This document shows, one piece after another, positions 6,408 to 57,815 of a stretch of 64,000 nucleotides of DNA. This stretch comes from Flavobacteriales bacterium (GTDB lineage Bacteria; Bacteroidota; Bacteroidia; Flavobacteriales; CAJXXR01): positions 48,208 to 112,207 of the forward strand of contig CBDEVQ010000092.1 in the NCBI GenBank assembly GCA_965243605.1. Reading direction: 5' to 3'. A program made the translations under genes and the position numbers. The notes below the pieces were generated by a model. That model did no database searches, had not been told where the DNA came from, and saw only the letters and a program-made list of their open reading frames with translations. Positions within the stretch are counted from its first letter, which is position 1; each line of letters begins with the position of its first letter.

Positions 6408-6524
6408 TTAAGCGGCAATGTAAAATCCGGAGAAATAAATCTTTCAAACTTCCCAAGTGGACTGTATAGCATTCAATTTAAAGATGCCACTATGGTTAGA
6501 TCTATAAAATTTGTATTAAATTAA
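6408..6524 (+). pseudogene. Orphan 3' fragment of an array gene (last ~38 codons of the alpha-type CTD plus stop) at the left edge of the array
   Basis: It reads LSGNVKSGEINLSNFPSGLYSIQFKDATMVRSIKFVLN*. The canonical 17-nt spacer ttaacaattagagcgtt and the A1 ATG follow. No upstream coding part and no start codon are present. Confidence 0.85.
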
Positions 6525-6541
6525 TTAACAATTAGAGCGTT

Positions 6542-8461: not shown

Positions 8462-8478
8462 TTAACAATTAGAGCGTT

Positions 8479-10371
8479 ATGAGAATACTAACCATATTAA
8501 GTTATTTATTTTGTTTATGTATTAGTTTGAATGGGAATAGCCAAACTATAACTGTTCAGAATTTAGACGATTCAGGGATTGGTTCTCTGCGTGATGCTAT
8601 TTCTAATGCCAATTCAGGCGATACCATACGTTTTAATCCAATGTTACTATCACAAGGGAGTGATACCTTGGTGTTAGATACAGTAATTAATATTGATAAA
8701 GATTTAGTGATAAAAGGGCTTTATGATGATGAGGATACGTTGTTTTTGTCTGTGTCAGACAATCAGTCATTCTTCCTTGTTGATACTGTTGAAAGTTTTA
8801 CGCTTGATAGTGTTGTTTTAATATCGTCAATAAATAATACTCCAAGTACATGGATTATAGTTTTTGAATCATTAATTAATATAGATAATTCTATTTTTAG
8901 AGGAGCTAAAAGTACTGTATTGATGTTATCAGAATCTCCATTTATAATACAAAATAGTTTTTTTTCTATAAACAATTTTCTAGTTTTTGGAGGAACACCC
9001 AATATTATTACTTGCGGATTTAATACAGATAAATTAAGGACAATAAGAATAGAATCTACTATATTTCAGGTTATTGGTGCTTCAAATGGACTTGATGTGA
9101 GATTTACAAGTAATCAGGATAGTAATAATGTAATAATTAGGAATTGTTATCTTAATAATTTTAGGAGTTTGTTATTTGGCCATTTTCGTGTAGAAATAAT
9201 AAATAGTACTTTTAATAACTCTCCTTTTGATATTGGTCACCCAATGATATCAGGGGGTATTCCTGAAAGAAATGCTTTTATTTTGGCTAACACTTCGACT
9301 TTTTCTTTAACTGATATTGGATATTTACAAAACCCTATCTCTTGTATAGGTTCACCAACAAACCCTTTTGATCCACCTCCTTCAGATATATTTGAATTAC
9401 AATTTAATAATTGCACTTTCAATGGAGGAACTTATGACAGCAATTCCTATGAAGATTACTTCGGTCCAGACTTAGATGAGCTAAAAATAACAAGTTGTAT
9501 TTTTAATGATATTAACGGATTTAACGAATTGCCTATAGACTCATCAGGAGGCTATAACTTATTTAGTTTTCCTCAAAGCATAGGTTTAGATTCAACAGAC
9601 CAAACCAATGTTCTGGTGTCTGATGTCAACTTAGGACCATTACAAAACAACGGAGGGTTTACACCAATACATCTACCAAACTACCAATCTTTAGCGTTTA
9701 ATTCGGGTAATCCGAACGATACAAGCTCTGCTCAAAATGGAGCCATTATACAACGCCGAGATATTGGGGCAGCAGAAATACAAGCTGTCCTAACCATAGA
9801 CACAACAGAGTATTGCGGTACATCCTATAATTGGCGAGCAGACACCCTTACTGAAACAGATATTCATTTTGATATTGAAGAGTCTACCAATGGTGGATAC
9901 GATAGTGTTTTTGCTTTAGATTTAACCTTAGATTACATGGATGCTCTAGCCATTAGCGATGGTGGAGCCTTACAAGCCAATATTTCTGATGCAACATACC
10001 AATGGATGGATTGTTCAACCCATTTACCATTGTTTGGCGAAACCAACCAAACCTTTACACCCAGTATAGCGGGAACCTATGCGGTTGTTGTTTCCAATGG
10101 AATTTGTACCGATACTTCGGCCTGTGTATTTATCGATAATTTGAGTGTAGAAGAGCAGGTGCAATCCTTTGTATTTGTAAAGAATCATGTTTTGTATTTT
10201 AACGGGTTAGAAAATGCAGAGTTTAACATCTATAATAGCCTTGGGCAGAATATTTTAAGCGGCAATGTAAAATCCGGAGAAATAGACCTTTCAAACTTCC
10301 CAAGTGGACTGTATAGCATTCAATTTAAAGATGCCACTATGGTTAGATCTATAAAATTTGTATTAAATTAA
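8479..10371 (+). CDS. Array copy A2 (signal a, core class II, CTD alpha)
   Basis: 630 aa with the same architecture. The core is homologous to B4 (both begin LSVSDNQSFFLVDTVESFTLDS). The last ~305 aa are identical to A3. Confidence 0.9.
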   Translation: MRILTILSYLFCLCISLNGNSQTITVQNLDDSGIGSLRDAISNANSGDTIRFNPMLLSQGSDTLVLDTVINIDKDLVIKGLYDDEDTLFLSVSDNQSFFLVDTVESFTLDSVVLISSINNTPSTWIIVFESLINIDNSIFRGAKSTVLMLSESPFIIQNSFFSINNFLVFGGTPNIITCGFNTDKLRTIRIESTIFQVIGASNGLDVRFTSNQDSNNVIIRNCYLNNFRSLLFGHFRVEIINSTFNNSPFDIGHPMISGGIPERNAFILANTSTFSLTDIGYLQNPISCIGSPTNPFDPPPSDIFELQFNNCTFNGGTYDSNSYEDYFGPDLDELKITSCIFNDINGFNELPIDSSGGYNLFSFPQSIGLDSTDQTNVLVSDVNLGPLQNNGGFTPIHLPNYQSLAFNSGNPNDTSSAQNGAIIQRRDIGAAEIQAVLTIDTTEYCGTSYNWRADTLTETDIHFDIEESTNGGYDSVFALDLTLDYMDALAISDGGALQANISDATYQWMDCSTHLPLFGETNQTFTPSIAGTYAVVVSNGICTDTSACVFIDNLSVEEQVQSFVFVKNHVLYFNGLENAEFNIYNSLGQNILSGNVKSGEIDLSNFPSGLYSIQFKDATMVRSIKFVLN

Positions 10372-10388
10372 TTAACAATTAGAGCGTT

Positions 10389-12269
10389 ATGAGAATACTA
10401 ACCATATTAAGTTATTTATTTTGTTTATGTATTAGTTTGAATGGGAATAGCCAAACTATAACTGTTCAGAATTTAGACGATTCTGGGGTTGGCTCTTTAC
10501 GTGATGCTATTTCTAATGCCAATTCAGGTGATACCATCCGTTTTAATCCAATGTTACTATCACAAGGGAGTGATACCTTGGTGTTAGATACAGTAATTAA
10601 TATTGATAAAGATTTAGTGATAAAAGGGCTTTATGATGATGAGGATACGTTGTTTTTGTCTTCTTTGGAGAATAGACGTTTGTTCCATTTTGATACAGTA
10701 GATTATGTACTACTTGATAGCCTGTTTTTTGTGGCAGATACAAGTAATGATGCTGATGATTATGTAATTACTTTTCTACATTCAGAGGGTTTTATTTCAA
10801 ATTCTTTTTTTAAGGGATATAATAAAAATGTTTTAGTTTCTTGGCAATCATCTTTGAATCTTTATGGGTGTTTTTTAAACAATGATATAAATACTAATGC
10901 ATCTATTGTCTTTTTGTCAAATGGAGATAATCTTTGCATTTTGAACATTACGTCTACATATATACAAAATAACGGTGTTGGATATGATTTTGATATAAGA
11001 TTAGCAGGAAATAAAAATAATAATCACATTATTATAGAAGATTCGTACTTTAAAAATTCTAAAAGTTTATATTTCGGTCATTTATTTACCGAAATAAGGC
11101 GTAGTACGTTTGAAAATTCAACAATTGATATTGGTCATGAATCTGTTATTGGTGGAACGAGCGAAAGAGACATTACATTGAATGTCATGAGCTCTACATT
11201 TTCTATTTCTGATTCTACAGATAATAAAAATAGTATATCTTGTATAGGTACACCTTATGGACCAATAGAATCTCCTCCTTTAGATTTTTTTCAGTTACAA
11301 TTTAAAAATTGCACATTTAGCGGAGGTGTATATGATAGTGCTTCATACGAAGATTATTTCGGCCCCGATTTAGATGAACTAAAAATAACAAGTTGCATAT
11401 TCAATGATATTAACGGATTTAACGAATTGCCTATAGACTCATCAGGAGGCTATAACTTATTTAGTTTTCCTCAAAGCATAGGTTTAGATTCAACAGACCA
11501 AACCAATGTTCTGGTGTCTGATGTCAACTTAGGACCATTACAAAACAACGGAGGGTTTACACCAATACATCTACCAAACTACCAATCTTTAGCGTTTAAT
11601 TCGGGTAATCCGAACGATACAAGCTCTGCTCAAAATGGAGCCATTATACAACGCCGAGATATTGGGGCAGCAGAAATACAAGCTGTCCTAACCATAGACA
11701 CAACAGAGTATTGCGGTACATCCTATAATTGGCGAGCAGACACCCTTACTGAAACAGATATTCATTTTGATATTGAAGAGTCTACCAATGGTGGATACGA
11801 TAGTGTTTTTGCTTTAGATTTAACCTTAGATTACATGGATGCTCTAGCCATTAGCGATGGTGGAGCCTTACAAGCCAATATTTCTGATGCAACATACCAA
11901 TGGATGGATTGTTCAACCCATTTACCATTGTTTGGCGAAACCAACCAAACCTTTACACCCAGTATAGCGGGAACCTATGCGGTTGTTGTTTCCAATGGAA
12001 TTTGTACCGATACTTCGGCCTGTGTATTTATCGATAATTTGAGTGTAGAAGAGCAGGTGCAATCCTTTGTATTTGTAAAGAATCATGTTTTGTATTTTAA
12101 CGGGTTAGAAAATGCAGAGTTTAACATCTATAATAGCCTTGGGCAGAATATTTTAAGCGGCAATGTAAAATCCGGAGAAATAGACCTTTCAAACTTCCCA
12201 AGTGGACTGTATAGCATTCAATTTAAAGATGCCACTATGGTTAGATCTATAAAATTTGTATTAAATTAA
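10389..12269 (+). CDS. Array copy A3 (signal a, core class III, CTD alpha)
   Basis: 626 aa. The core is homologous to B5 (SSLENR..F..DTVDY.LLDSL...IRLAGNKNNN). The C-terminal half is identical to A2. Confidence 0.9.
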   Translation: MRILTILSYLFCLCISLNGNSQTITVQNLDDSGVGSLRDAISNANSGDTIRFNPMLLSQGSDTLVLDTVINIDKDLVIKGLYDDEDTLFLSSLENRRLFHFDTVDYVLLDSLFFVADTSNDADDYVITFLHSEGFISNSFFKGYNKNVLVSWQSSLNLYGCFLNNDINTNASIVFLSNGDNLCILNITSTYIQNNGVGYDFDIRLAGNKNNNHIIIEDSYFKNSKSLYFGHLFTEIRRSTFENSTIDIGHESVIGGTSERDITLNVMSSTFSISDSTDNKNSISCIGTPYGPIESPPLDFFQLQFKNCTFSGGVYDSASYEDYFGPDLDELKITSCIFNDINGFNELPIDSSGGYNLFSFPQSIGLDSTDQTNVLVSDVNLGPLQNNGGFTPIHLPNYQSLAFNSGNPNDTSSAQNGAIIQRRDIGAAEIQAVLTIDTTEYCGTSYNWRADTLTETDIHFDIEESTNGGYDSVFALDLTLDYMDALAISDGGALQANISDATYQWMDCSTHLPLFGETNQTFTPSIAGTYAVVVSNGICTDTSACVFIDNLSVEEQVQSFVFVKNHVLYFNGLENAEFNIYNSLGQNILSGNVKSGEIDLSNFPSGLYSIQFKDATMVRSIKFVLN

Positions 12270-12286
12270 TTAACAATTAGAGCGTT

Positions 12287-14182
12287 ATGAGAATACTAAC
12301 CATATTAAGTTATTTATTTTGTTTATGTATTAGTTTGAATGGGAATAGCCAAACCATCACGGTTCAGAATTTAGACGATTCTGGGGTTGGCTCTTTACGT
12401 GATGCTATTTCTAATGCCAATTCAGGTGATACCATCCGTTTTAACCCTATGTTACTTTCACAGGGAAGTGATACTTTAGTATTAGATACAGTGATTAATA
12501 TTGATAAAGATTTAGTGATAAAAGGGCTTTATGATAGCGAGGATACCTTGTTTTTAACTACAGGAGACAATCAATCATTTTTTTATATTGATTCAGTAGA
12601 AAATCTAATTATTGATAATTTGGTATTTATATTTGATTCTATATTTTTAATTAGTAATCATGATTTTATAAATGCGCGGAATTCAAAAGTAAAATTATCA
12701 AATTCAATATTTAGAGGGAATAGAGATGAAATTTTGTCTTTTTGGCAATCTTCATTAGAAATATTGAATTGTAAATTCAATATTAAAATGACTGAACAAT
12801 ATAGTTCATTAATAGTTTATTTGACAAATGGCGAAAGTTATAGAGAATTTAAGATAATAAACTCTTTATTAAAATTAAATGGTGAAATATTAGGGAATAG
12901 TATTGATATAAGACTTAAGGGAAATAAAAATAATAATCATTTTATCATAGAAAATTCATACTTTAAAAATTCTAAAAGTTTATATTTCGGTCATTTAATA
13001 ATAAATATCAATCAATGTACATTCGAAAATTCACCTATTGATATTGGGCATGGACTTATGGGAGGTGTTACAACTGAAAGAGATATTACATTGAATGCAA
13101 TGAGTTCGACATTTTCTATTTCTGATTCGACAGATAACCAAAATAGTATCTCTTGTATAGGTACACCTTATGGACCAATAGAATCTCCTCCTTTAGATTT
13201 TTTTCAGTTACAATTTAAAAATTGCACATTTAGCGGAGGTGTATATGATAGTGCTTCATACGAAGATTATTTCGGTCCCGATTTAGATGAACTAAAAATA
13301 ACAAGTTGTATTTTTAATGATATTAATGGCTTTAATGAATTACCTATTGACTCTTCAGGTGGATATAACTTATTTAGTTTTCCTCAAAGCATAGGATTAG
13401 ATTCAACAGACCAAGCTAATGTTCTGGTGTCTGATATTAACTTGGGGCCCTTACAAAACAATGGAGGGTATACACCTACACATCTACCAAACTACCAATC
13501 TTTAGCGTTTAATTCGGGTAATCCGAACGACACAAGCTTTGCCCAAAACGGAACCATCATACAACGCCGAGATATAGGAGCTGCAGAAATACAAGCTGTC
13601 CTAACCATAGACACAACAGACTATTGCGGTACATTCTATAATTGGCGAGCAGACACCCTTACCGAAACAGATATTCATTTTGATATTGAAGAATCTACTA
13701 CAGGAGGGTACGATAGTGTTTTTGCCATAGATTTAACCTTAGATTATATTGATGCTATAGCCATAAGTGATGGAGGCGAATTAACAGCCAATAGTTCTGA
13801 TGCGACCTACCAATGGATGGATTGTTCAACCCATTTACCATTGTTTGGTGAAACTAACCAAACCCTTACACCCAGTATAGCGGGAACCTATGCGGTTGTT
13901 GTTTCCAATGGAATTTGTACCGATACTTCGGCCTGTGTATTTATCGATAATTTGAGTGTAGAAGAGCAGGTGCAATCCTTTGTATTTGTAAAGAATCATG
14001 TTTTGTATTTTAACGGGTTAGAAAATGCAGAGTTTAACATCTATAATAGCCTTGGGCAGAATATTTTAAGCGGCAATGTAAAATCCGGAGAAATAGACCT
14101 TTCAAACTTCCCAAGTGGACTGTATAGCATTCAATTTAAAAATGCCACTATGGTTAGATCTATAAAATTTGTATTAAATTAA
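12287..14182 (+). CDS. Array copy A4 (signal a, chimeric core IV/III, CTD alpha)
   Basis: 631 aa. The first part of the core resembles A5/B1 (RNSKVKLSNSIFRGNRDEILSFWQSSLEILNCKF). The second part resembles A3 (NKNNNHFIIENSYFKNSKSLYFGH...SSTFSISDSTDNQNSISCIGTPYGPIESPPLDFFQLQFKNCTFSGGVYDSASYE). Confidence 0.9.
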   Translation: MRILTILSYLFCLCISLNGNSQTITVQNLDDSGVGSLRDAISNANSGDTIRFNPMLLSQGSDTLVLDTVINIDKDLVIKGLYDSEDTLFLTTGDNQSFFYIDSVENLIIDNLVFIFDSIFLISNHDFINARNSKVKLSNSIFRGNRDEILSFWQSSLEILNCKFNIKMTEQYSSLIVYLTNGESYREFKIINSLLKLNGEILGNSIDIRLKGNKNNNHFIIENSYFKNSKSLYFGHLIININQCTFENSPIDIGHGLMGGVTTERDITLNAMSSTFSISDSTDNQNSISCIGTPYGPIESPPLDFFQLQFKNCTFSGGVYDSASYEDYFGPDLDELKITSCIFNDINGFNELPIDSSGGYNLFSFPQSIGLDSTDQANVLVSDINLGPLQNNGGYTPTHLPNYQSLAFNSGNPNDTSFAQNGTIIQRRDIGAAEIQAVLTIDTTDYCGTFYNWRADTLTETDIHFDIEESTTGGYDSVFAIDLTLDYIDAIAISDGGELTANSSDATYQWMDCSTHLPLFGETNQTLTPSIAGTYAVVVSNGICTDTSACVFIDNLSVEEQVQSFVFVKNHVLYFNGLENAEFNIYNSLGQNILSGNVKSGEIDLSNFPSGLYSIQFKNATMVRSIKFVLN

Positions 14183-14199
14183 TTAACAATTAGAGCGTT

Positions 14200-16113
14200 A
14201 TGAGAATACTAACCATAATAAGTTATTTATTTTATTTATGTATTAGTTTGAATGGGAATAGCCAAACCATCACGGTTCAGAATTTAGACGATTCTGGGGT
14301 TGGTTCTTTACGCGATGCTATTTCTAATGCCAATTCAGGCGATACCATCCGTTTTAACCCTATGTTAATTGCTCAAGGGAGTGATACTTTAGTATTAGAT
14401 ACAGTAATAAGTATTGACAAAGATTTAGTGATAAAAGGGCTTTATGATAGCGAGGATACCTTGTTTATGTCTGCATTAGATAATCAGAATTTGTTTTTCA
14501 TAGATAGTGTTGAAAGTATGGTTATGGATAGTTTAGTTTATCATATTGGCTTAATAAATACTTTTACAAGTTCCGATTTATTTCGGGTGCGTAATTCAAA
14601 CGTTCAAATATATAATTCAATATTTTTGGGGCATAGAGATGAAGTATTATCTTTTTGGCAATCGTCTTTAGAAATTTCAAATTGTAAGTTTATTAGTTTA
14701 GAGAGTTTATATTCGAGTTCTATTATTATATTTTCAACGAATGGGGATGTGCCAAGAGAGCTTAGGGTTATTAATTCTGAATTTGAATTTAATAATACTC
14801 TCACTTCTAAAGTTATTATTAGAACTGGTGGTGATAAAAGTAATAATCTTATTTATTTTAAAAACGCCTATTTTTCTAATATCAAGACTTTGATTTATGG
14901 CCACAATACTATTGATATTTCTAATTGTACTTATGAAAATGCTCATATACAAACAGGTGAACCTTCAGTTGGGTTTGCATTTATTAGAGATATTACATTA
15001 ACTGCAAAATCATCAACTTTTACTATTACTGACACTAATCAAGTCCAAAATACAATTTTATGTATAGGAACACCTTATGGACCTATTGAACCTGTTCCTT
15101 TAGATGTCCTTGAGTTAAATTTAATAAATAGTACGTTTAATGGTGGAATTTACGAAGACGTTATTTATGGAACTGGTTATGATAGTAATTATTTGGATTA
15201 CTTCGGTCCCGATTTAGATGAACTAAAAATAACAAGTTGTATTTTTAATGATATTAATGGCTTTAATGAATTACCTATTGACTCTTCAGGTGGATATAAC
15301 TTATTTAGTTTTCCTCAAAGCATAGGATTAGATTCAACAGACCAAGCTAATGTTCTGGTGTCTGATATTAACTTGGGGCCCTTACAAAACAATGGAGGGT
15401 ATACACCTACACATCTACCAAACTACCAATCTTTAGCGTTTAATTCGGGTAATCCGAACGACACAAGCTTTGCCCAAAACGGAACCATCATACAACGCCG
15501 AGATATAGGAGCTGCAGAAATACAAGCTGTCCTAACCATAGACACAACAGACTATTGCGGTACATTCTATAATTGGCGAGCAGACACCCTTACCGAAACA
15601 GATATTCATTTTGATATTGAAGAATCTACTACAGGAGGGTACGATAGTGTTTTTGCCATAGATTTAACCTTAGATTATATTGATGCTCTAGCCATAAGTG
15701 ATGGAGGCGAATTAACAGCCAATAGTTCTGATGCGACCTACCAATGGATGGATTGTTCAACCCATTTACCATTGTTTGGTGAAACTAACCAAACCCTTAC
15801 ACCCAGTATAGCGGGAACCTATGCGGTTGTTGTTTCCAATGGAATTTGTACCGATACTTCGGCCTGTGTATTTATCGATAATTTGAGTGTAGAAGAGCAG
15901 GTGCAATCCTTTGTATTTGTAAAGAATCATGTTTTGTATTTTAACGGGTTAGAAAATGCAGAGTTTAACATCTATAATAGCCTTGGGCAGAATATTTTAA
16001 GCGGCAATGTAAAATCCGGAGAAATAAACCTTTCAAACTTCCCAAATGGACTGTATAGCATTCAATTTAAAAATGCCACTATGGTTAGATCTATAAAATT
16101 TGTATTAAATTAA
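14200..16113 (+). CDS. Array copy A5 (signal a, core class IV, CTD alpha)
   Basis: 637 aa. The core is homologous to B1/B3. The C-terminal ~305 aa differ from A4 at only ~3 residues. Confidence 0.9.
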   Translation: MRILTIISYLFYLCISLNGNSQTITVQNLDDSGVGSLRDAISNANSGDTIRFNPMLIAQGSDTLVLDTVISIDKDLVIKGLYDSEDTLFMSALDNQNLFFIDSVESMVMDSLVYHIGLINTFTSSDLFRVRNSNVQIYNSIFLGHRDEVLSFWQSSLEISNCKFISLESLYSSSIIIFSTNGDVPRELRVINSEFEFNNTLTSKVIIRTGGDKSNNLIYFKNAYFSNIKTLIYGHNTIDISNCTYENAHIQTGEPSVGFAFIRDITLTAKSSTFTITDTNQVQNTILCIGTPYGPIEPVPLDVLELNLINSTFNGGIYEDVIYGTGYDSNYLDYFGPDLDELKITSCIFNDINGFNELPIDSSGGYNLFSFPQSIGLDSTDQANVLVSDINLGPLQNNGGYTPTHLPNYQSLAFNSGNPNDTSFAQNGTIIQRRDIGAAEIQAVLTIDTTDYCGTFYNWRADTLTETDIHFDIEESTTGGYDSVFAIDLTLDYIDALAISDGGELTANSSDATYQWMDCSTHLPLFGETNQTLTPSIAGTYAVVVSNGICTDTSACVFIDNLSVEEQVQSFVFVKNHVLYFNGLENAEFNIYNSLGQNILSGNVKSGEINLSNFPNGLYSIQFKNATMVRSIKFVLN

Positions 16114-16126
16114 TAATTAAAACGTT

Positions 16127-18040
16127 ATGAGAATACTAACCATATTAAGTTATTTATTTTGTTTAGGTATTAGTTTTAATGGGAATAGCCAAACCATCAC
16201 GGTTCAGAATTTAGACGATTCTGGGGTTGGCTCTTTACGTGATGCTATTTCTAATGCCAATTCAGGCGATACCATCCGTTTTAATCCCATGTTAATTGCT
16301 CAAGGGAGTGATACTTTAGTATTAGATACAGTAATAAGTATTGACAAAGATTTAGTGATAAAAGGGATTTATGATAGCGAGGATACCTTGTTTTTGACTT
16401 GTATTAATAATCAAATGTTTTTTTTAATTGAAAGTATTGAGCTTTCAATGGATAGTATGATTTTTACATCTGCGTATTATAATTATTCAAATACATATTT
16501 TCTATATTTAAGAAACTCTGAAGTAAATATTTTAAATTCAAAATTCTTAGATTTTTCAGAAACGGTTCTATCTTCAGAACAATCGAATTTAACTATTAAT
16601 AATAGTTCATTTTTTTGTGACAGCTTATATTCACATTATCCTTTGGTATACCTAACTCAAGGTGATACGTTAAGAAAACTAAAAATTATAAAGTCAAAGT
16701 TTTTAATAAAGGAAAAGAATACAGTTGGTATAGTAGTTAGAACAGCTGGAAATAAGGAGAATAATAAGGTGATTATTCAAGATTCATATTTTGAAAATTT
16801 TGAAACATTAATATATGGTCATAACACCATAGATATTCAATATTCAACATTTAATAATTCACTAATTAAAACGGGAGAGCCTTATGTGGGGTTTGCATAT
16901 ATTAGAGATATTACATTAACTGTAAAATCTTCAACCTTTGCAATTACAGATTCTAATCAAGTTCAAAATACGATTTTATGTATTGGTACACCTTATGGAC
17001 CTATTGAGCCAGTTCCTTTAGATACTCTGAAGTTAAATTTTACAAATTGTACGTTTAATGGAGGTCTTTATGAAGATACTCTTTATGGGAACTTTACTGA
17101 TAGTAATTATTTGGATTATTTCGGCCCCGATTTAGATGAACTAAAAATAACAAGTTGTATTTTCAATGATATTAACGGATTTAACGAATTGCCTATTGAC
17201 TCTTCAGGTGGATATAACTTATTTAGTTTTCCTCAAAGCATAGGATTAGATTCAACTGACCAAGCTAATGTTCTGGTGTCTGATATTAATTTGGGGCCCT
17301 TACAAAACAATGGAGGGTATACACCTACACATCTACCAAACTACCAATCTTTAGCGTTTAATTCGGGTAATCCTAACGATACCATTTCTGCTCAAAATGG
17401 AGCCATTATACAACGTAGAGATATTGGATCAGCTGAAATACAAGCTATACTTACTGTAGATACTACTGAATATTGTGGCGAATTTTATGATTGGAGAGGG
17501 CAAATGTTAACCGAATCAGCTATCTATTCAGATATAGAAGTATCTACAACAGGATTAGATAGTGTTTTTGCCATAGATTTAACCTTAGAGTATTTAGATG
17601 CCCTAGCCATAAGTGATGGAGGCGAATTAACAGCCAATAGTTCTGATGCGACATACCAATGGATGGATTGTTCAACCTATTTACCATTGTTTGGCGAAAC
17701 CAACCAAACCCTTACACCCAGTATTGCGGGAACCTATGCGGTTGTTGTTTCCAACGGAATTTGTACCGATACTTCGGCCTGTGTATTTATCGATAATTTG
17801 AGTGTAGAAGAGCAAGAAGAATATTATGTTTTTATAAAAGATAATGTACTTCATCTTAATGGGATTAGTAGTATCAAAATAGATTATATTATTTATAACA
17901 GTTTAGGACAAAAGGTACTTCACTCAAATACCTCACAAGAAAAACAAGACCTCTCTTATTTAGAGTCAGGTGTCTATTATATTAGATTAATATCTGATAA
18001 AGTGAATGATAAAAAGTATAATAAATTTATTATTAAATAA
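16127..18040 (+). CDS. Array copy A6, last gene of block A (signal a, core class V, CTD gamma)
   Basis: 637 aa. The core segment TQGDTLRKLKIIKSKFLIKEKNTVGIVVRTAGNKENNKVIIQDSYFENFETLIYGHNT is shared with B6. The CTD ...DLSYLESGVYYIRLISDKVNDKKYNKFIIK differs from alpha and resembles the CTD of the 18529..23949 gene. Confidence 0.9.
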   Translation: MRILTILSYLFCLGISFNGNSQTITVQNLDDSGVGSLRDAISNANSGDTIRFNPMLIAQGSDTLVLDTVISIDKDLVIKGIYDSEDTLFLTCINNQMFFLIESIELSMDSMIFTSAYYNYSNTYFLYLRNSEVNILNSKFLDFSETVLSSEQSNLTINNSSFFCDSLYSHYPLVYLTQGDTLRKLKIIKSKFLIKEKNTVGIVVRTAGNKENNKVIIQDSYFENFETLIYGHNTIDIQYSTFNNSLIKTGEPYVGFAYIRDITLTVKSSTFAITDSNQVQNTILCIGTPYGPIEPVPLDTLKLNFTNCTFNGGLYEDTLYGNFTDSNYLDYFGPDLDELKITSCIFNDINGFNELPIDSSGGYNLFSFPQSIGLDSTDQANVLVSDINLGPLQNNGGYTPTHLPNYQSLAFNSGNPNDTISAQNGAIIQRRDIGSAEIQAILTVDTTEYCGEFYDWRGQMLTESAIYSDIEVSTTGLDSVFAIDLTLEYLDALAISDGGELTANSSDATYQWMDCSTYLPLFGETNQTLTPSIAGTYAVVVSNGICTDTSACVFIDNLSVEEQEEYYVFIKDNVLHLNGISSIKIDYIIYNSLGQKVLHSNTSQEKQDLSYLESGVYYIRLISDKVNDKKYNKFIIK

Positions 18041-18097
18041 TATGAAATAAAAAACTATGAAATTCTTTGACACAGATAGCAATTAAAACCAACAAGA

Positions 18098-18410
18098 GTG
18101 ATTCTCGATACATTTTTATTTCTCTGTCGTTCAATAAAACCACTCGAACAGACAGATTAAAAACAATAGTCGTTAAAATCACTCTAATGTTTGAGTTATA
18201 GTAGACATTCAGCGTGATTCTCGATACATTTTTATTTCTCTGTCGTTCAATAAAACCACTCGAACAGACAGATTAAAAACAATAGTCGTTAAAATCGCTC
18301 TAATGTTTGAGTTATAGTAGACATTCAGCGTGATTCTCGATACACTTTTATTTCTTTGTGGTTCAATAAAACTACTCGAATCGACAGGTAGTTGAAAACT
18401 AGACTTAGCC
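18098..18410. repeat. 116-bp direct tandem repeat: two near-identical units, a diverged partial third unit, and a degenerate partial unit just upstream
   Basis: The unit start gtgattctcgataca recurs at 18098, 18214 and 18330, giving a 116-bp period. Units 1 and 2 differ at one base that I saw (atcActc versus atcGctc). Each unit holds the hairpin CTGTCGTTC-aataaaaccactc-GAACaGACAG. Confidence 0.9.
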
Positions 18411-18528
18411 TGATTTATCCTACGTTCCAATTATTTTTCTGCTTTAAATCTTATTTATTAAATGTATTCAGTACGTAAATGGTGTGTTGCCATTTACGAT
18501 TATTATATCAATTTAAATTAATAACAAA

Positions 18529-21500
18529 ATGAAGATCAAAAAAGAACTCATTTTAATGCTATGTTTTGTAATGGGAAGTACCCACAGTATAGCACAAACC
18601 AGTACAACCTTATCCTACAATGGTAGTGATGAAGTGATTAAAAACCCTGAGCGCGGGTTAAGTTATAAAGCAGGGTATGTCGATTTATTTGTCGATGGGT
18701 ATTCTTATGATGGAGCTGTATCCTATCAATGGACTCATGAATTTCCTAACACAGCAAATACAACTCCACCAAGTTTTATTTCACGGTTTAGGAAAGATGC
18801 AGGAAATCACATACAAGAATTGCCAATTGGGTATCAATTTAAATCTACAGCACCTGATGGATTAATTACAGTGGATTCAGATTTAGATTTACCATTACAA
18901 GGGAATGATGAGTTACAAATTAGTTTTCCAAATCCTATGAATTCGAGTTATGATAATAGTTCTGATTTAGTGATAATTCATTATACAGATAATACAGCTA
19001 ACTCTAGAACAGTAAAATATAAAGCATTTCCAAGCGGAGTAGCAGGAAACTATAATGGGGGCTATGGGGATTTTGTTGCACCAGGTAATAATACTATATT
19101 TTCTAAAATAAACATTAGGAATATATCTGGTATTGGTGGACAAATTCAATCATTTTATGTTTTTCAAAATGATAATATTGCTGGTAATGCACCAATAGAA
19201 ATAGACATGAACGAACCGGTTATTTTAGAGTTAAGGTCGGATATCGAAGCATTTACGATAAACCACATAGACCGTTCAGGTGTTTTAGAAAATCGTATAG
19301 AATGTTCATCGCCACATATTGAACAAGCTGCTGACCAATTGAACAATTTTGAGGTTCGTACAGAGTTGTCATATAACCAAATACCTTTAGATATAAGTAC
19401 AGGAAGTTTAAGTACACCGTTTGGGAATCAGATAACGTATAACAACTCTAACCACAGCTTAAATATTACCGATGCTTTTTTTGATGCCCAAACCTATCAG
19501 CAAGCCAGTAATAACAATATTGAGTTAGACCAATGTTATATAGAAGAAAATGGTATCTCTTTAGTTGAACTTGAAGAGTATATTCATTTTTCAGAAGATA
19601 ATATTACGGCATCCTCGCCTCAATACCAATTAGAAACGGCAAGTGTTAATCGTACAAACAATGCGTTTAATCAAATTAAAAATCACGGATTAAAAGCCCA
19701 TCAGGTTACCAATTCAGATTTTAAGATGACGGCAAATAATCATATCTATAATGTGCCAGACGATGAACATTTCACGTATTTACAAAACATAATGGATGAA
19801 ACCAATACTGAAATCTATTCAGGTAATAATAGTCTTATCGCATTAAATACATTGGGGTGGATAAAAGACCAAGAAGATGCTAGTTTATATCGTCTTTCTC
19901 CAACATGGTTAAAAACATCAAAAGATAAGCATTACCTACATTCTGGTCAAGATGCATATTATGGTGAGTTTTTACCCAATGAAGAAAACACTCTACGTTC
20001 TAGCCACCAAAGGTCTTTATTTAGATACTCAGCAGCTGCATCTAACCCGAACTTTACAGGAAACGGATTTAACTCTAGTGGTATTGCAGCAGATGTAAAT
20101 ATTCAGCACTATCAGGAAACAGTCATGAAAAAAGTAAAAAACTATTTTCCTAATAAAAAAATGCTAACCGATATGGTTGTGGCATGGGAACATAAGTTTA
20201 CCTATCCACAAAACGGAGGAACCTATGACGATGCTGGAGAAGATGAGTTTGATGTAAACCCAAACCTTGGATATTACGATGATATGTTTGCCACAACCTA
20301 TGAGTATTTAGGAACTATTTGTGATGAACCACAATTTCATTCAGTTTCAACAGATTTTACATCTGATGGTAAAAAAGATTTATTCGTATTAGGAAAGTAT
20401 AGCGATAATTTTTGGATGCATGCTGATATGCCTTTATACTTTGACGATGCAACTTTTGGACAATCTTTTGGGGCAATGTCTAGCAACTGGACAAATAATG
20501 GACAGTTTGATTACGAAGCTCTTAAGGGAATGCTTACAGCATCGGATGAAGAGCAAAACCCATTTTTAGCAGCAAAAAAATTATTCCGTTTTAACTATAC
20601 CTCTTTTGATGTAACGTATAACAACTCAGAAACAATAGGGAAAAATATTTTTGAATTTGTAGAGCCAAACGGAAATGGAGCGATTGATAAATGGAAAAGC
20701 ACAGCAATAACACAGGCTGATGCTGATCAATACCAATTACCATATTCAACAGGATATTTTACACATGATAATAAATCGGTGTTCGATTATATTCGTGACC
20801 ATTTGGGGTATCGTTTAGAACTGCAGAACTTAGAAACAGAAATACAAGGAAATAATCTAACCGCAAAATTCCATATTCAAAATAAAGGATTTTCAGCACC
20901 TAAAAACCCAAGACAAATTTATGCGGTGCTTTTAGATGAGCAAGGACAACAAGTGCAACAACTACCTGTGAATATAGATGCTAATGAGTGGTTATCATGG
21001 ACAACCGATGCAAATTTAGATATTAAAAAAAATGATATAAACGGAACAAATTATACCGACTATACGTTAGAGGATGATTTTGACCCTATTAATTACAATA
21101 CCCATACAGTTCAAGCGACCTTTGATATGTCAGGTTTAACAACCTATGCTACATATTCTATAGCCTTATGGATGCCAGACCCCTCGGCAGATTTAAACAC
21201 TGCATCTAACCAAGTGGATTATGCTGTTAAATTAGCTAATAGACCAATTTCTATTGGTGCTCGTGGAGAAAATATTGTAGCGAGTTTTAAACGAGGTGTA
21301 AATCAAATGAATTTACCATCTAAATATATCTCTGCAAATACCTTAATAATCAATCAAAATGCTACATGGGCGTCTTTAATAGAACATAATAGAAATATTA
21401 CTATTCCTAATGGAAGAACACTTACCATTACCGGAACCCTTAAAATGCCGCAAGGCACAAAAATTCAAGTTCTAGAGGGAGGAAAACTAATTGTAAACGG

Positions 21501-23949
21501 AGGAACCATAACAAGTAATTGTGATGCGCCTTGGCTAGGGATAGATGTATTCGGTCATGAAGAGTTAAACCAAACTGCTGCCAGCGGACAAGGTGAAGTT
21601 GTACTCAAAAACAATGCCCGAATAGAATATGCTGTAGATGGTGTTGCCTTAATTGGGCATACTCAAAATGGAGACATTGCCTGGGGAACATCAGGAGGGA
21701 TTTTGTTAGCCGAAAACACAACCTTTTATAATTGTAGACGAGGTATAGAATTTATGGCATATACCAACTATAATACAACCTATACGCAAGAGCGAAGAAA
21801 TAAAGGCGTTATAAATAATTGTACGTTTCAATTTACCGATGCGTTTAATGACCTATATGGATACAATACCTATGGAGAACATTATATACCGGTAGGAATA
21901 AGCATGTGGGAAGTAGACCGTGTATTGGTAAAAGGATGTACATTTATTAATGAAATGTCAACCTTTAACACAAGCAATTATGTCCATAATAAATACGATG
22001 GTTATGGAATTATTAGCGTAGATGCTTCTCCATTTATACAACCTGTTTATCCACCTGGACCTATGCCTGGATCTGCTACTGATTGGAATAATTTTGAAGG
22101 ATTTGATATTGGAGTATATAAAGTTAATTTAAATGGTGGTACAAGCCCGATTAAAATTAAGGATAACGATTTTAGTGAAAATCGTGCAGGAATCTATATT
22201 GAAAATAGCCCTTTTGCAACGGTGGTGTTAAACGATATTAATGTGCCAAATTTAAACTTCGGATCAACAACCGAAGAAATAAATGCTGTAGGTTTGTATT
22301 TAACAGGAGCATCTAATTTTGAAGTGGAAGACAATACCTTTATCGGAAATGGCGCTTCATCTACCCACCATGATGGGGGATTGGTTATCGAAAACAGCTA
22401 TGCAACGGGCCCTCATAACGAAACCGTTTATAACAATGCATTTGATGATTTAGGATTTGGATTTTTAGCCTACGGCGAAAATGGAGATACCTATAACGAT
22501 AATGGCGTACCAACGTCTCGTGGATTAGAAATGGGATGTAATGATTTTGGACAAAATGATAACAATTATCAAGATTGGTATATCCATAATGGAGCATCTA
22601 TAAGCCCTGTACAAGGTTCAGGAAGTACACCAACAGGAAACCGTTTTTCAGATGACCCAATCACAACAGACAACCACGGACATATTTTTATTGGTGGTAC
22701 TTTTGAAATTACCGAGTATTTCCGTTTTGATCCCTATGAACATGACCCATCTGAATCTGATAATGCAAAAGTAGCCGTTACAAATACAGGGGCTTCATAC
22801 TCAGAAAGTCAAAGCTGTTCGTCTAACTTTGCATTAAGTGAGGATATTACCGAAGGAGATTTAAATAATCATTTTTCAGATCATGAACTTTTGAAATATA
22901 AACTATTTCAATTAAAAACGAGTTATAAAAACATTTTAAATGGAGGGGTTAAACCTGAAATTATGGATGTGTTACTGGATGCAAACAAAACCTCTCAAGA
23001 AGTAAGAGATGAACTTGTTAATGGGTCTCCCTATTTGGAAGATGAGGTATTAATTGCCGCCATTAAAAGAGAAATTCCACTAACCCAATGGCACTTAACC
23101 GAAATTTTGGTTTGGAATTCTCGATTAAGCAGGGCGGTTATGAGTGCTTTATATGAAGCTCAACCATTAACGCCATATCAATATAATTTGGTTGTAAATG
23201 CAGACAATGGTTCTCAACGATTATTGCTTGAAATGGATATTCACGAAAAACAAATGGAGTTAGCAAGATTAAAATCTGACCATGTGTTAAAAGCATGGAA
23301 TAATGAGGATATTAACTTCTATGATGAAGTGATTAAAGTCTATAACAATGAAGAAACCGAATTTGCTGTAGGGCAATGTATAGAGGCTGAATTGTCAAAT
23401 AAAAACTATACAGGAGCAACATCTCGATTAAATACCTTTATGGGGTCGAATTCAAATGCAGATTTTCAAACCTTTTATGATTTCAAGATTAACTTAAAAC
23501 AAAGTGGTCGTAATTGGTTTCAATTATCTGATAATGAATTAAGAACTTTAGATGATTTACAGGCAAGTAATAATTCGTTTATTGCTCCTAAAGTAGAAAA
23601 CATTAAACGTTTTATTAGTGGAGATAATCAAACCTTTACGCCATTACCAATAGACTTAACACAGCCACAAACTAAAAAAGCCTATGTTGGTAAACCATCA
23701 GATGAATCCTTTGAGAATATCCTTGAAGTGAAATATCTAAGTGGAGAACAAGCTCTAATGTTTATTAGTACAAAGCCTGGAGCGAGATTTACTATTGTAA
23801 ATGCACTTGGTCAGGTTGTAGAAACTGGAGAAATGGCAAATGCTGTTGAATACAAAGATGTATCTTACTTACAATCTGGAGTATATCATATCCGATTAAC
23901 CTCGGATGAAGTAAATAAAACACAACACGATAAATTTGTTGTTCGATAA
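18529..23949 (+). CDS. 1806-aa secreted protein between the two array blocks: glycoside-hydrolase-like N-terminal region (DUF4874/DUF4832-like), beta-helix region, T9SS CTD
   Basis: Signal peptide MKIKKELILMLCFVMGSTHSIAQ. NPERGL near the N-terminus, and later DHLGYRLELQNLETEIQGNNLTAKFHIQNKGFSAPKNPRQIYAVLLDE, which is DUF4832-like as I recall that family. PbH1-like coils follow (TLTITGTLKMPQGTKIQVLEGGKLIVNGGTITS...). The C-terminus is FTIVNALGQVVETGE...VSYLQSGVYHIRLTSDEVNKTQHDKFVVR. Confidence 0.8.
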   Translation: MKIKKELILMLCFVMGSTHSIAQTSTTLSYNGSDEVIKNPERGLSYKAGYVDLFVDGYSYDGAVSYQWTHEFPNTANTTPPSFISRFRKDAGNHIQELPIGYQFKSTAPDGLITVDSDLDLPLQGNDELQISFPNPMNSSYDNSSDLVIIHYTDNTANSRTVKYKAFPSGVAGNYNGGYGDFVAPGNNTIFSKINIRNISGIGGQIQSFYVFQNDNIAGNAPIEIDMNEPVILELRSDIEAFTINHIDRSGVLENRIECSSPHIEQAADQLNNFEVRTELSYNQIPLDISTGSLSTPFGNQITYNNSNHSLNITDAFFDAQTYQQASNNNIELDQCYIEENGISLVELEEYIHFSEDNITASSPQYQLETASVNRTNNAFNQIKNHGLKAHQVTNSDFKMTANNHIYNVPDDEHFTYLQNIMDETNTEIYSGNNSLIALNTLGWIKDQEDASLYRLSPTWLKTSKDKHYLHSGQDAYYGEFLPNEENTLRSSHQRSLFRYSAAASNPNFTGNGFNSSGIAADVNIQHYQETVMKKVKNYFPNKKMLTDMVVAWEHKFTYPQNGGTYDDAGEDEFDVNPNLGYYDDMFATTYEYLGTICDEPQFHSVSTDFTSDGKKDLFVLGKYSDNFWMHADMPLYFDDATFGQSFGAMSSNWTNNGQFDYEALKGMLTASDEEQNPFLAAKKLFRFNYTSFDVTYNNSETIGKNIFEFVEPNGNGAIDKWKSTAITQADADQYQLPYSTGYFTHDNKSVFDYIRDHLGYRLELQNLETEIQGNNLTAKFHIQNKGFSAPKNPRQIYAVLLDEQGQQVQQLPVNIDANEWLSWTTDANLDIKKNDINGTNYTDYTLEDDFDPINYNTHTVQATFDMSGLTTYATYSIALWMPDPSADLNTASNQVDYAVKLANRPISIGARGENIVASFKRGVNQMNLPSKYISANTLIINQNATWASLIEHNRNITIPNGRTLTITGTLKMPQGTKIQVLEGGKLIVNGGTITSNCDAPWLGIDVFGHEELNQTAASGQGEVVLKNNARIEYAVDGVALIGHTQNGDIAWGTSGGILLAENTTFYNCRRGIEFMAYTNYNTTYTQERRNKGVINNCTFQFTDAFNDLYGYNTYGEHYIPVGISMWEVDRVLVKGCTFINEMSTFNTSNYVHNKYDGYGIISVDASPFIQPVYPPGPMPGSATDWNNFEGFDIGVYKVNLNGGTSPIKIKDNDFSENRAGIYIENSPFATVVLNDINVPNLNFGSTTEEINAVGLYLTGASNFEVEDNTFIGNGASSTHHDGGLVIENSYATGPHNETVYNNAFDDLGFGFLAYGENGDTYNDNGVPTSRGLEMGCNDFGQNDNNYQDWYIHNGASISPVQGSGSTPTGNRFSDDPITTDNHGHIFIGGTFEITEYFRFDPYEHDPSESDNAKVAVTNTGASYSESQSCSSNFALSEDITEGDLNNHFSDHELLKYKLFQLKTSYKNILNGGVKPEIMDVLLDANKTSQEVRDELVNGSPYLEDEVLIAAIKREIPLTQWHLTEILVWNSRLSRAVMSALYEAQPLTPYQYNLVVNADNGSQRLLLEMDIHEKQMELARLKSDHVLKAWNNEDINFYDEVIKVYNNEETEFAVGQCIEAELSNKNYTGATSRLNTFMGSNSNADFQTFYDFKINLKQSGRNWFQLSDNELRTLDDLQASNNSFIAPKVENIKRFISGDNQTFTPLPIDLTQPQTKKAYVGKPSDESFENILEVKYLSGEQALMFISTKPGARFTIVNALGQVVETGEMANAVEYKDVSYLQSGVYHIRLTSDEVNKTQHDKFVVR

Positions 23950-23963
23950 AATGTGATTAACTT

Positions 23964-24010
23964 GTAAGCCCAAGGTGTTTAAAACCTTGGGCTTACCTAT
24001 TTATTTATAA
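23964..24010 (+). terminator. Rho-independent terminator after the 1806-aa gene
   Basis: GTAAGCCCAAGGT-gtttaaa-ACCTTGGGCTTAC gives a 13-bp perfect stem, followed by ctatttatttat. Confidence 0.75.
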
Positions 24011-24034: not shown

Positions 24035-25948
24035 ATGAAATACCTTAATGTGTATAATTTTATATATTGTTTGTTTTTTACGCTCACACTAACAGGGCAA
24101 ACTATTACGGTTCAGAATTTAGATGATTCAGGAATCGGTTCTCTGCGTGATGCTATTGATATAGCAAACTCAGGCGACACTATACGTTTTAATCCAATGT
24201 TACTATCGCAAGGGAGTGATACTTTAGTTCTAGATACTGTTATTAATATTGATAAGGATTTAGTAATAAAAGGGCTTTATGATGATGAGGATACTTTGTT
24301 TTTGTCTGCTATTGATGACCAGATGATGTTTTCTATAGATAGTGTTGAAAATATAGTTATGGATAGTTTGACTTTTGATATTGGCTCAATAAATACTTTT
24401 ACCAATTACGATTTCTTTTGGGTGCGAAATTCAAATATACAAATGTATAATTCAATGTTTTTAGGGTATAGAGATGAGGTTTTAACTTTTTGGCAATCAT
24501 CTTTAGAGATATTAAATTGTAAATTTACTAGTGGAAATAGTTTATTTCCGAGTTCTGTTATTATATTTTTAACAAATGGAGATGTGTCAAGACAGTTTAG
24601 AGTTGTTAATTCTGAGTTTAGATTTAATAATCCTCTTACTTCTGCAGTTATCATTAAAACAGGTGGCAATAAAAATAATAACCATATTTATTTTGAAAAT
24701 AATTATTTCTCTAATATAGGTACTTTAGTTTATGGTCATAATATGATTGATATTTTTAATAGCACCTATGAAAATGCTCATATACAAACAGGAGAGCCTT
24801 CTGTAGGATTTGCTTACATTAGAGACATTACATTAAATATAGAATCTTCAACTTTTACAATTAATGATGTTAATCAAGTACAAAACACCATTTTATGCAT
24901 AGGAACTCCTTATGGACCTATTGAGCCTGTTCCTCTAGATGTTCTTGAGTTAAATTTCACAAATTGTACGTTTAATGGAGGGATATATGTAGATACCGTT
25001 TATAATAACTTTTATGATAGTAATTATTTGGATTATTTCGGTCCAGATTTAGATGAGTTAAAAATAACAAGTTGTATTTTTAATGATATTAACGGATTTA
25101 ATGAATTACCTATAGACACTTCAGGTGGATATAATCTATTTAGTTTCCCTCAAAATATAGGTTTAGATTCTACAGACCAAGCTGATATTTTGGTTTCAGA
25201 TATTAATTTAGGATCATTACAAAACAACGGAGGGTCTACACCTACGCATTTACCAAGTTTTCAATCTTTAGCCTTTAACTCTGGTAATCCAAACGATACA
25301 AGCTCTGCTCAAAATGGGGATATTGTTCAACGTAGAGATATAGGAGCTGCTGAAATACAAGCTGTATTAACAGTTGATACTACAGAATACTGTGGAGAAA
25401 CTTATCAATGGAGAGAAGAAATACTGACGGAATCTAATATTCATTTTGACGTGCAAGAATCAACTACAGGAGGATATGATAGTGTTTTTGTTCTGGACTT
25501 AACTTTAGATTACATTGATGCTATTGCCATTAGTGATGGAGGGGAATTAAAAGCAAATATTTCTGATGCAACGTATCAGTGGATAGACTGCTCAACCAAT
25601 CAACCTTTATTCGGAGAAACGAATCAGGTTTTAACACCAAGTACAGAGGGAATCTATGCTGTTATTGTTTCAAGTTCTATTTGTACAGACACATCAAGTT
25701 GTGTGTATATTAATAATATAGGGTTAGAAGAGCAAGAGAAACACTTTGTATTTGTAAAAGATAAAATACTCTATTTAAATAATGTTAATAGCTATACCGA
25801 ATATAGTGTTTATAATAACTTAGGGCAAATCGTGTTTAAATTCAATACAGTAAAAAAACAACAGGATATAACTCATTTAAATTCAGGTGTGTATTTTATT
25901 GAGTTTAAAGATGAGAATATTCAACCAGTGAAATTTATTTTGGATTAA
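24035..25948 (+). CDS. Array copy B1, first gene of block B (signal b, core class IV, CTD beta)
   Basis: 637 aa. The signal MKYLNVYNFIYCLFFTLTLTGQ is unique to this copy. The core is essentially identical to B3. The CTD is ...YSVYNNLGQIVFKFNTVKKQQDITHLNSGVYFIEFKDENIQPVKFILD. Confidence 0.9.
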   Translation: MKYLNVYNFIYCLFFTLTLTGQTITVQNLDDSGIGSLRDAIDIANSGDTIRFNPMLLSQGSDTLVLDTVINIDKDLVIKGLYDDEDTLFLSAIDDQMMFSIDSVENIVMDSLTFDIGSINTFTNYDFFWVRNSNIQMYNSMFLGYRDEVLTFWQSSLEILNCKFTSGNSLFPSSVIIFLTNGDVSRQFRVVNSEFRFNNPLTSAVIIKTGGNKNNNHIYFENNYFSNIGTLVYGHNMIDIFNSTYENAHIQTGEPSVGFAYIRDITLNIESSTFTINDVNQVQNTILCIGTPYGPIEPVPLDVLELNFTNCTFNGGIYVDTVYNNFYDSNYLDYFGPDLDELKITSCIFNDINGFNELPIDTSGGYNLFSFPQNIGLDSTDQADILVSDINLGSLQNNGGSTPTHLPSFQSLAFNSGNPNDTSSAQNGDIVQRRDIGAAEIQAVLTVDTTEYCGETYQWREEILTESNIHFDVQESTTGGYDSVFVLDLTLDYIDAIAISDGGELKANISDATYQWIDCSTNQPLFGETNQVLTPSTEGIYAVIVSSSICTDTSSCVYINNIGLEEQEKHFVFVKDKILYLNNVNSYTEYSVYNNLGQIVFKFNTVKKQQDITHLNSGVYFIEFKDENIQPVKFILD

Positions 25949-25988
25949 CAACAACTATTCATTTTTAAATTATATAAACCTAAACCGT

Positions 25989-27872: not shown

Positions 27873-27885
27873 TAATTAAAACGTT

Positions 27886-29799: not shown

Positions 29800-29816
29800 T
29801 TAACAATTAGAGCGTT

Positions 29817-31712: not shown

Positions 31713-31752
31713 CAACAACTATTCATTTTTAAATTATATAAACCTAAACCGT

Positions 31753-33657: not shown

Positions 33658-33674
33658 TTAACAATTAGAGCGTT

Positions 33675-57451: not shown

Positions 57452-57507
57452 TGGTATTTCTACCTTTGTTGGTAGAGTAAGTTAAGACAAAACTTATTTT
57501 AGCAGTT

Positions 57508-57813
57508 ATGAAGAGAAGTACTTACGAAGAATCCTTTAAGTTAATGATAATGGATTTATACAAAGGCGGACAATCGATGTCTAGCTTATCGTCTGAATAT
57601 TCAATAAATTTGAATATGTTATATCGTTGGCGTCGAGAATATTTAAACCCAAAGCGTCCCAGTTTTACGGGCAGAGGCAATGCAGCTTTGACTGATGAAC
57701 AAAAAGAACTAAAGCATTTAAAAGAAAAATTAAAAGATGTAACCATGGAACGTGACATCTTAAAAAAGGCAGTAAGCATTTTCTCCAAGAAAGACAGAAC
57801 AGGTACGCTATAA
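57508..57813 (+). CDS. IS3-family transposase OrfA (HTH / leucine-zipper part)
   Basis: 101 aa with YRWRREY and a heptad Leu stretch. The slippery heptamer A AAA AAG lies at 57762..57768, in the zero frame of orfA. Confidence 0.9.
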   Translation: MKRSTYEESFKLMIMDLYKGGQSMSSLSSEYSINLNMLYRWRREYLNPKRPSFTGRGNAALTDEQKELKHLKEKLKDVTMERDILKKAVSIFSKKDRTGTL

Positions 57814-57815
57814 TT

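Follow-up and report, generated by a model that had tools for sequence, protein, structure and literature searches.

Arrays with homogenized centers and divergent repeats at their ends are a known outcome of concerted evolution, as in the Rsp satellite of Drosophila (PMC5411766). Among genes for the cargo of type IX secretion systems (T9SS), rgpA, kgp, and hagA of Porphyromonas gingivalis have undergone rearrangement of their adhesin modules and allelic exchange (PMC5266723). Export by the T9SS requires the C-terminal 22 residues (motifs D and E) of the cargo (PMC3120885); this C-terminal motif is functionally relevant, and the C-terminal domains (CTDs) are not freely interchangeable between species (PMC11285876). 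Here we analyze a stretch of 64,000 nucleotides (nt) from a Flavobacteriales bacterium (GenBank assembly GCA_965243605.1, contig CBDEVQ010000092.1, positions 48,208 to 112,207 of the forward strand), hereafter the window, in which two blocks of six paralogous genes, each encoding ~630 residues, lie on either side of a giant gene for a putative T9SS cargo protein.

The best explanation for the locus as a whole, to which we give a probability of roughly 70%, is that the interior of the array has been homogenized by gene conversion, that its ends lack a homology anchor and are ancestral, and that the CTD of the last gene of block A is a mosaic. One junction module, termed alpha, would have been carried through the interiors of both blocks by homologous recombination, chiefly in the form of non-reciprocal gene conversion and, to a lesser degree, of unequal exchange. 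A divergent segment would be overwritten only where homology is present on both flanks, a rule that the sequence patterns fit. Unique DNA borders the final CTD of either block, as well as the first 5′ end of block B; these segments would thus miss one anchor, and they may have persisted as ancestral ends, orthologous to those of the same-position genes of relatives. The CTD of A6, of a type termed gamma, would comprise ~44 family-type residues followed by a terminal beta-hairpin (the last 30 residues) homologous to that of the giant protein; this relationship would be ancient, older than the species split, and kept at the protein level. The features concerned are as follows, in window coordinates:

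6542–18040, + strand: block A, genes A1 to A6, with spacers of 17, 17, 17, 17, and 13 nt
18529–23949, + strand: giant gene, 1806 residues, DUF4832, putative T9SS cargo; CTD tail at 23857–23946
24035–35588, + strand: block B, genes B1 to B6, with spacers of 40, 13, 17, 40, and 17 nt
6409–6541, + strand: A0 remnant, a truncated alpha CTD end plus 17-nt spacer, directly 5′ of A1
8222–8461, + strand: hybrid CTD of A1, with a unique head (HNPNLPLIRVTNQTIFF...) and an alpha tail from ~8346
17815–18040, + strand: gamma CTD of A6, with a family-type head (~17815–17947) and a giant-like tail (17948–18037)
18041–18528, + strand: A6-to-giant spacer, unique DNA, orthologous to the 349-nt spacer of the related contig L001
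23950–24034, + strand: giant-to-B1 spacer, 85 nt, with a 13-bp terminator-like hairpin at 23964–23996
11845–12444, + strand: example of the alpha junction module, comprising alpha CTD, 17-nt spacer, and MRILTIL signal peptide
25691–26080, + strand: beta junction module, comprising beta CTD, 40-nt spacer, and MTRVIKS signal peptide; second copy at 31455–31844
35412–35588, + strand: remainder of the gamma-prime CTD of B6, beginning where B6 departs from alpha; tail not giant-like

The alpha CTD is found in A2, A3, A4, A5, B2, B3, and B5, with 98–100% nucleotide identity among the copies, and the beta CTD is found in B1 and B4, which share 74 of 75 residues. This agrees with the seven alpha and two beta copies listed in a preliminary description of the locus, which also correctly stated that the last gene of each block has a CTD of its own. 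A6 leaves the alpha sequence exactly at 17815/17816, after SVEEQ, and B6 is the same as B2 up to ~35411 and divergent beyond. The main types (alpha, beta, and gamma) are at most 42% identical to one another, and the family as a whole has four to five divergent types, which differ chiefly in the terminal hairpin. In the beta copies, divergence starts ~35 codons before the CTD and runs through the 40-nt spacer into the different signal peptide of the next gene. B4 is an interior copy and yet is not alpha.

The first genes of the two blocks had been described as atypical as well. A1 does carry a hybrid CTD, but it is not the true edge of the array. The A0 remnant upstream of it, consisting of the last 38 codons and stop of an alpha CTD (6409–6524) and a 17-nt spacer (6525–6541), aligns without gaps to the 3′ end of A3 with two mismatches from 6409 on and shows no similarity to it before 6409; this remnant is the real left boundary of block A. 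The signal peptide of B1, previously called unique, is unique within the window in its first half, and its second half is common to B2 and B5. We also observed that the left break of A0 and the switch from unique head to alpha in A1 (~8340–8350) fall at the same CTD position within 1–2 nt, and two novel joints at the same phase suggest either one rearrangement event or a preferred end of conversion tracts.

Identity varies strongly with position in the gene. Its pairwise mean, in nucleotides, is about 87–90% in the first ~270 nt past the signal peptide, 45–68% in the central ~800 nt, and 74–90% in the ~700 nt that follow; in the CTD, the coexistence of several types lowers it to about 70%. In the conserved 3′ body, identity to the nearest paralogue is 0.94 for A1, 0.92 for A6, 0.89 for B1, and 0.94 for B6, compared to 0.99–1.00 for A2 to A5, 0.95 for B2 and B3, 0.89 for B4, and 0.92 for B5. 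By this measure, the edges are just modestly less homogenized than the interior.

The longest near-identical tracts of the array cross the junctions, so that each covers the 3′ end of a gene, the spacer, and the 5′ end of its downstream neighbor. The alpha junction module, with a spacer of 17 or 13 nt, occurs nine times, counting the truncated occurrence before A1, and is seen only in this genome. Its tracts show zero to three mismatches over 340–950 nt, both within and between blocks: positions 11845–12444 of block A and 29375–29974 of block B differ at 1 of 600 nt, and 29483–30052 and 33341–33910 form another near-identical tract. The two beta junctions (25691–26080 and 31455–31844) likewise differ at 1 of 390 nt. 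When the copies are clustered at 97% identity, membership shifts about every 90 nt, and copies from A and B are mixed. Tracts common to A and B across the giant gene, together with these shifts, point to gene conversion rather than to unequal exchange alone, since a reciprocal exchange joining A with B would leave the giant gene deleted or duplicated. A duplication of block A into block B was considered as a candidate and rejected, as the near-identical inter-block tracts are not collinear.

Relatives of the locus indicate which ends are old. A search of 5.8 billion proteins recovered the twelve window copies and only six other full-length family members, two of which, P0013 and P0016, share a contig of their own. 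The related contigs compared here, L001 to L004, come from short-read metagenomes. L001 is ~88% identical to the window in the flanking genes and carries, in order, a gene X, P0004 (with a gamma CTD), a 349-nt spacer, a giant gene of 1807 residues, an 84-nt spacer, P0010, Rrf2, ScdA, and NorB. L002 and L003 start inside the giant gene, such that position A lies outside their coverage, and from the giant gene onward they have an L001-like arrangement with a single B-position gene, P0011. On L004 (~82% identity to the window), P0002, the contig's only family gene, comes after the giant gene, and the neighborhood is a different one. The giant gene thus adjoins a family gene on all four related contigs, whatever flanks them. 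Each of the four has one gene at position B, compared to six in the window; at position A, L001, the only contig reaching it, has one gene compared to six, and collapse during metagenome assembly is possible. The conserved bodies of the relatives' genes are closest to those of B4 and B1.

The ends of the blocks match these same-position genes. Within its CTD, A6 shares 87–97% identity with P0004, and no paralogue exceeds 68% (the CTDs of A6 and P0004 align at 123 bits, with 28 of 30 tail residues identical), whereas the 130 nt before the CTD differ from the alpha copies at three positions (~98% identity) and are ~71–78% identical to P0004. For B6, nucleotide identity over the final 240 nt and the adjoining 60 nt downstream is 92.7% with P0010 and 93% with P0011, compared to 64% with alpha over the final 240 nt. 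Both A6 and B6 therefore resemble paralogues up to the CTD boundary and orthologues from exactly there on. P0010 combines a B1-type signal peptide (77% identical) with a B6-type CTD, and the 5′ end of B1 and its upstream spacer are collinear with L001 at 88%. The alpha CTD and the MRILTIL signal peptide are absent from all six of the relatives' proteins. Because same-position genes of relatives carry matching ends, the A6 CTD, the B6 CTD, and the B1 5′ end appear to be ancestral syntenic ends and, judged from these comparisons, the common interior variant, alpha, is the derived one. The preliminary description was thus right that edge copies escape homogenization, as their orthologous ends attest, but the unequal exchange that it invoked does not by itself account for the conversion patterns. 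We rejected the idea that the B6 CTD is a hybrid formed in this genome, as P0010 and P0011 have this CTD in its entirety, down to the 17 alpha-like residues at its start; it is more likely that these 17 residues are common to the alpha and gamma-prime types.

The A6-to-giant spacer is unique DNA, so A6 has no downstream homology anchor. It contains a 116-nt tandem repeat (2.5 copies, 95% identity, 18098–18387), which is present in about two copies in L001, and, 3′ of this repeat, a terminator-like hairpin at 18474–18498; a comparison of the spacer with Rfam gave no credible match. The giant-to-B1 spacer is kept in L001 and L004, the two relatives for which this spacer sequence is shown.

One could instead suppose that the array is young, built by a few segmental duplications that never included the terminal copies and without any ongoing homogenization. 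Features of the junctions fit such a history. The two 40-nt beta spacers (25949–25988 and 31713–31752) are identical, ~33 of their nucleotides match the end of the relatives' giant-to-B spacer while the first 6–7 nt fall outside this homology, and P0002 has a signal peptide resembling the MTRVIKS one. This junction, which B1–B2 and B4–B5 have in common, looks like a primary duplication joint that retains a piece of the original upstream region, and the A0 remnant starts at a defined phase within the CTD. However, shifts in clustering every ~90 nt that mix A and B copies are not expected from simple nested duplications, and the variable central cassettes are 25–45% diverged from each other while the junctions are 99–100% identical. 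As parts of one copy differ so greatly in age, conversion is required, and we consider a young array without homogenization very improbable.

We next turn to the resemblance between A6 and the giant protein, which the preliminary description had reported for the gamma CTDs of the terminal copies at the protein level and as only loose at the DNA level. For A6 this description is accurate, although the resemblance is limited to the last 30 residues. These align without gaps, with 17 of 30 residues identical, 64 of 93 nucleotides (69%) identical, and 17 of 31 third codon positions matching, and give a Smith–Waterman score of 101–102. By contrast, the first 44 residues of the CTD share 8 of 44 residues with the giant protein (BLOSUM score 5). 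Against 33 unrelated CTD tails, A6 scores a mean of 41.8 (standard deviation (sd) 14.7, maximum 65) and the giant protein a mean of 36.4 (maximum 62); a single background pair of 528 reaches 102, and that pair appears orthologous. This background was drawn from retrieved loci and from library matches and was picked partly for similarity to A6, which makes the tail result conservative. When scored against the giant tail, A6 reaches 102, P0004 97, P0002 68, B6 55, P0013 and P0016 54, beta 47, and alpha 31. B6 therefore lies within the background, and the claim does not extend to it.

The preliminary description further hinted at an old exchange with the neighboring giant gene. Combined with unequal crossing-over as the sole homogenizing process, this would make the terminal gamma CTDs derivatives of the CTD of the giant protein, a history that we find quite unlikely. 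The tail resemblance is specific, A6 and the giant gene are adjacent, as are their orthologues in L001, and trees built from tails alone join A6 and P0004 to the giant proteins in 37% of replicates, with a further 30% when P0002 is included (~67% in total). The rest of the CTD has another affinity. Clustering of gamma with the giant CTD in a CTD tree had been proposed as the check, and it is seen in 0.5% of bootstrap replicates of the whole-CTD neighbor-joining tree, in which gamma falls inside the family clade with 65–75% bootstrap; in trees built from heads alone, 76% of replicates place gamma with gamma-prime, P0013, and P0016, and 0% place it with the giant CTD. A phmmer search with the 74-residue A6 CTD gives 123 bits for P0004, 70–76 for B6, P0010, P0011, P0013, and P0016, 59 for P0002, and 47 for beta. 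The giant protein (33.7 bits) ranks no better than alpha (32–34 bits), below at least 13 unrelated single-domain CTDs at 35–39 bits drawn from a library of 1.84 billion proteins. Of the 17 identical residues, eight use the same codon, compared to 8.15 (sd 1.9) expected from codon usage, and without excess identity at silent sites there is no trace of a datable transfer. What stands of the proposed exchange is thus a relationship of the tail, and neither the whole CTD nor the silent sites bear it out.

Because silent sites are saturated and the tail is common to orthologues, any exchange would predate these species. The giant tail is 29–30 of 30 residues identical across three species, and the gamma tail is 28 of 30. 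In the A6 model described below, the tail forms the final beta-hairpin, with a loop that, in gamma, P0002, and the giant protein, exceeds that of other family CTDs by two residues. As far as these sequences allow us to judge, the resemblance to the giant protein is real, confined to the A6 tail among the window copies, ancient, and common to the orthologue P0004 and, in part, to P0002. The tail is probably either an ancestral trait of the gene family or the result of a very old, short exchange. A gamma-like tail in P0002, the sole family gene on the most distant contig, L004, favors the ancestral reading and speaks against derivation from the giant gene. Either way, the terminal place of A6 is not what gave rise to the resemblance.

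The likeness of the tails could also reflect convergence or shared functional constraint, with two co-located cargo proteins selected for one variant, which we judge unlikely. The last ~22–30 CTD residues hold the T9SS recognition motifs, the synonymous sites carry no signal of shared descent, and the adjacency on all four related contigs noted above would be in keeping with a shared function. However, other CTDs predicted to be exported by the same cell (alpha, beta, gamma-prime, and that of U1961, a 1961-residue protein encoded upstream of block A) do without this tail. In addition, the match takes in loop residues and loop length (SD.VN....KF), which lie outside the generic motifs, and background scores this high are found only between evident homologues.

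Several points weigh against the explanation by conversion, anchor-less ends, and a mosaic A6 CTD. The relatives' single B-position genes come from short-read metagenome contigs and could be collapsed arrays, although no further family fragments from those samples were found in the search of 5.8 billion proteins. The change may be an expansion in this genome or a contraction in the relatives, and the finding of variable cassettes common across species suggests that the multi-copy state is old. The beta type (B1 and B4) and the A1 head persist even though they are flanked by homology on both sides, and their survival in the interior indicates that two-sided homology permits overwriting but does not ensure it. 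Homology and convergence are inseparable for the gamma and giant tails, given the saturation of silent sites.

The CTD variants are all located at the extreme C-terminus, with profile scores at or near the cut-offs. With the NCBIfam model TIGR04183 (cut-off 23 bits), A6 scores 26.6, the alpha CTD of A2 25.7, the beta CTD of B1 31.9, the giant protein 28.4, and U1961 26.8 bits, and B6, at 22.6 bits, is slightly under the cut-off. With the Pfam model PF18962 (cut-off 27), A6, B6, and the giant protein score 20.6–22.2 and B1 scores 27.2. In block A, each gene encodes a putative signal peptide followed by a beta-helix body of the choice-of-anchor Q kind and, last, a type A CTD of the T9SS; NF041518 (choice-of-anchor Q) gives 29–30 bits in every copy tested, compared to a cut-off of 25. 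All twelve copies have a hydrophobic leader, a putative signal peptide read from the sequence, ending in ...NSQ/TITV or ...TGQ/TITV, and a Gln after the cleavage site fits the Q-rule in Bacteroidota (PMC5837995).

The AlphaFold2 prediction for A6 is of low quality as a whole (mean pLDDT 54), but CTD residues ~570–625 have a pLDDT of 71–85 and an Ig-like beta-sandwich fold. Foldseek matches this region to the CTD of NucA in a T9SS complex (8glk_D, TM 0.75, rmsd 2.5 Å) and to the CTD of RgpB (7pq4); E-values are weak since the whole model is poor, and the fold matches were used qualitatively only. Residues ~100–250 form stacked beta-strand rungs (pLDDT 70–95), and the best fold matches of A6 are beta-helix proteins (tailspikes, the PfbA adhesin, and pectate lyases), none with E ≤ 1e-3. 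Distant homologues bear Beta_helix and Chlam_PMP Pfam domains. The twelve genes are thus predicted to encode T9SS-secreted beta-helix surface proteins.

Searches beyond the protein collection returned few homologues. A search of genome contigs with A6 gave just one partial match, 33% identical, in Taishania pollutisoli, with close relatives lying outside the collection, and a search of metagenome contigs with the family alignment gave distant homologues only, at most 49% identical over short stretches. Neither of two distant metagenome homologues checked is beside a DUF4832 gene.

Further observations concern the neighbors of these genes. On L001, only the last 36 codons of X, the gene before P0004, are present; they end in a giant-type CTD (KDLSGLSSGVYHIRLTSDVVNTTQHDKFVVQ) and are followed by a giant-type spacer of 85 nt, the two together taking up L001 1–196. 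Over positions 37–192 of L001, which hold the 3′ part of this CTD together with the spacer, identity to the corresponding region past the giant gene of the window is 88%. A giant-type end, a spacer, and P0004 in succession point to the duplication of a two-gene module made up of a giant-type gene and a family gene, and the window has no counterpart of X. In the window, the 1961-residue protein (123–6008) is rich in PKD, CUB, and GEVED domains and bears a T9SS CTD, and its GTG start is without a recognizable signal peptide; its true start may lie elsewhere, or the gene may be damaged. In the region 54782–58682, an 897-residue open reading frame reaches only halfway through a T9SS CTD (YPNPTSKVLHIDG...) before continuing into unrelated residues, and the next two frames (57508–57813 and 57816–58682) are IS3-family orfA/orfB-like by eye, such that an insertion sequence appears to have cut off the sorting domain of this cargo protein.

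The central cassettes (residues ~91–335) are common across species at different positions, with matches of 94% between P0011 and A4, 94% between P0013 and B5, 91% between P0002 and A6, and 81% between P0004 and A5; the cassette of P0016 is not present in the window. These cassettes predate the species and are undergoing reassortment. It is conceivable, though doubtful, that the locus is a diversity-generating array of surface proteins in which the conserved junctions serve as portable homology arms and the hairpin common to A6 and the giant protein marks a functional pairing. If so, cassettes 91–94% identical to those of other species would be shuffled among twelve intact, exportable genes, and the A6 and giant proteins might be recognized or anchored together by the T9SS.

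Overall, this locus is a new example of a known phenomenon and not a new mechanism or kind of system, and it makes no long-standing question newly testable. Its value lies in being a clean bacterial, protein-coding case of the array-edge effect, in which the edge variants would be ancestral and the common interior variant derived. It also indicates that T9SS sorting domains can be mosaics, in which the terminal hairpin, the part needed for export, has a separate history. What matters for annotation is that the CTD type here goes by place in the array and not by any cargo-type difference detected.

As in rDNA and satellite arrays such as Rsp (PMC5411766), variant low-copy units are found at the ends of the array. 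Satellites are non-coding, whereas the units here are twelve whole protein-coding genes, of which only the ends (CTD, spacer, and signal peptide) and the flanking conserved parts are homogenized while the 250-residue central cassette remains highly diverse, and the edge variants can be traced as orthologues of same-position gene ends in relatives. In both this locus and P. gingivalis, T9SS surface proteins swap modules by homologous recombination, and the mosaic genes retain conserved CTDs; in P. gingivalis, however, the loci are dispersed and the adhesin domains are shuffled, whereas here the genes are in tandem and it is the CTD that varies in type, its heads and tails forming mosaics. Finally, the CTDs resemble the type A domains of TIGR04183 and PF18962 in their position at the extreme C-terminus and in the beta-sandwich of the A6 model, and they differ in that, within a single paralogue family at a single locus, four to five divergent types occur.

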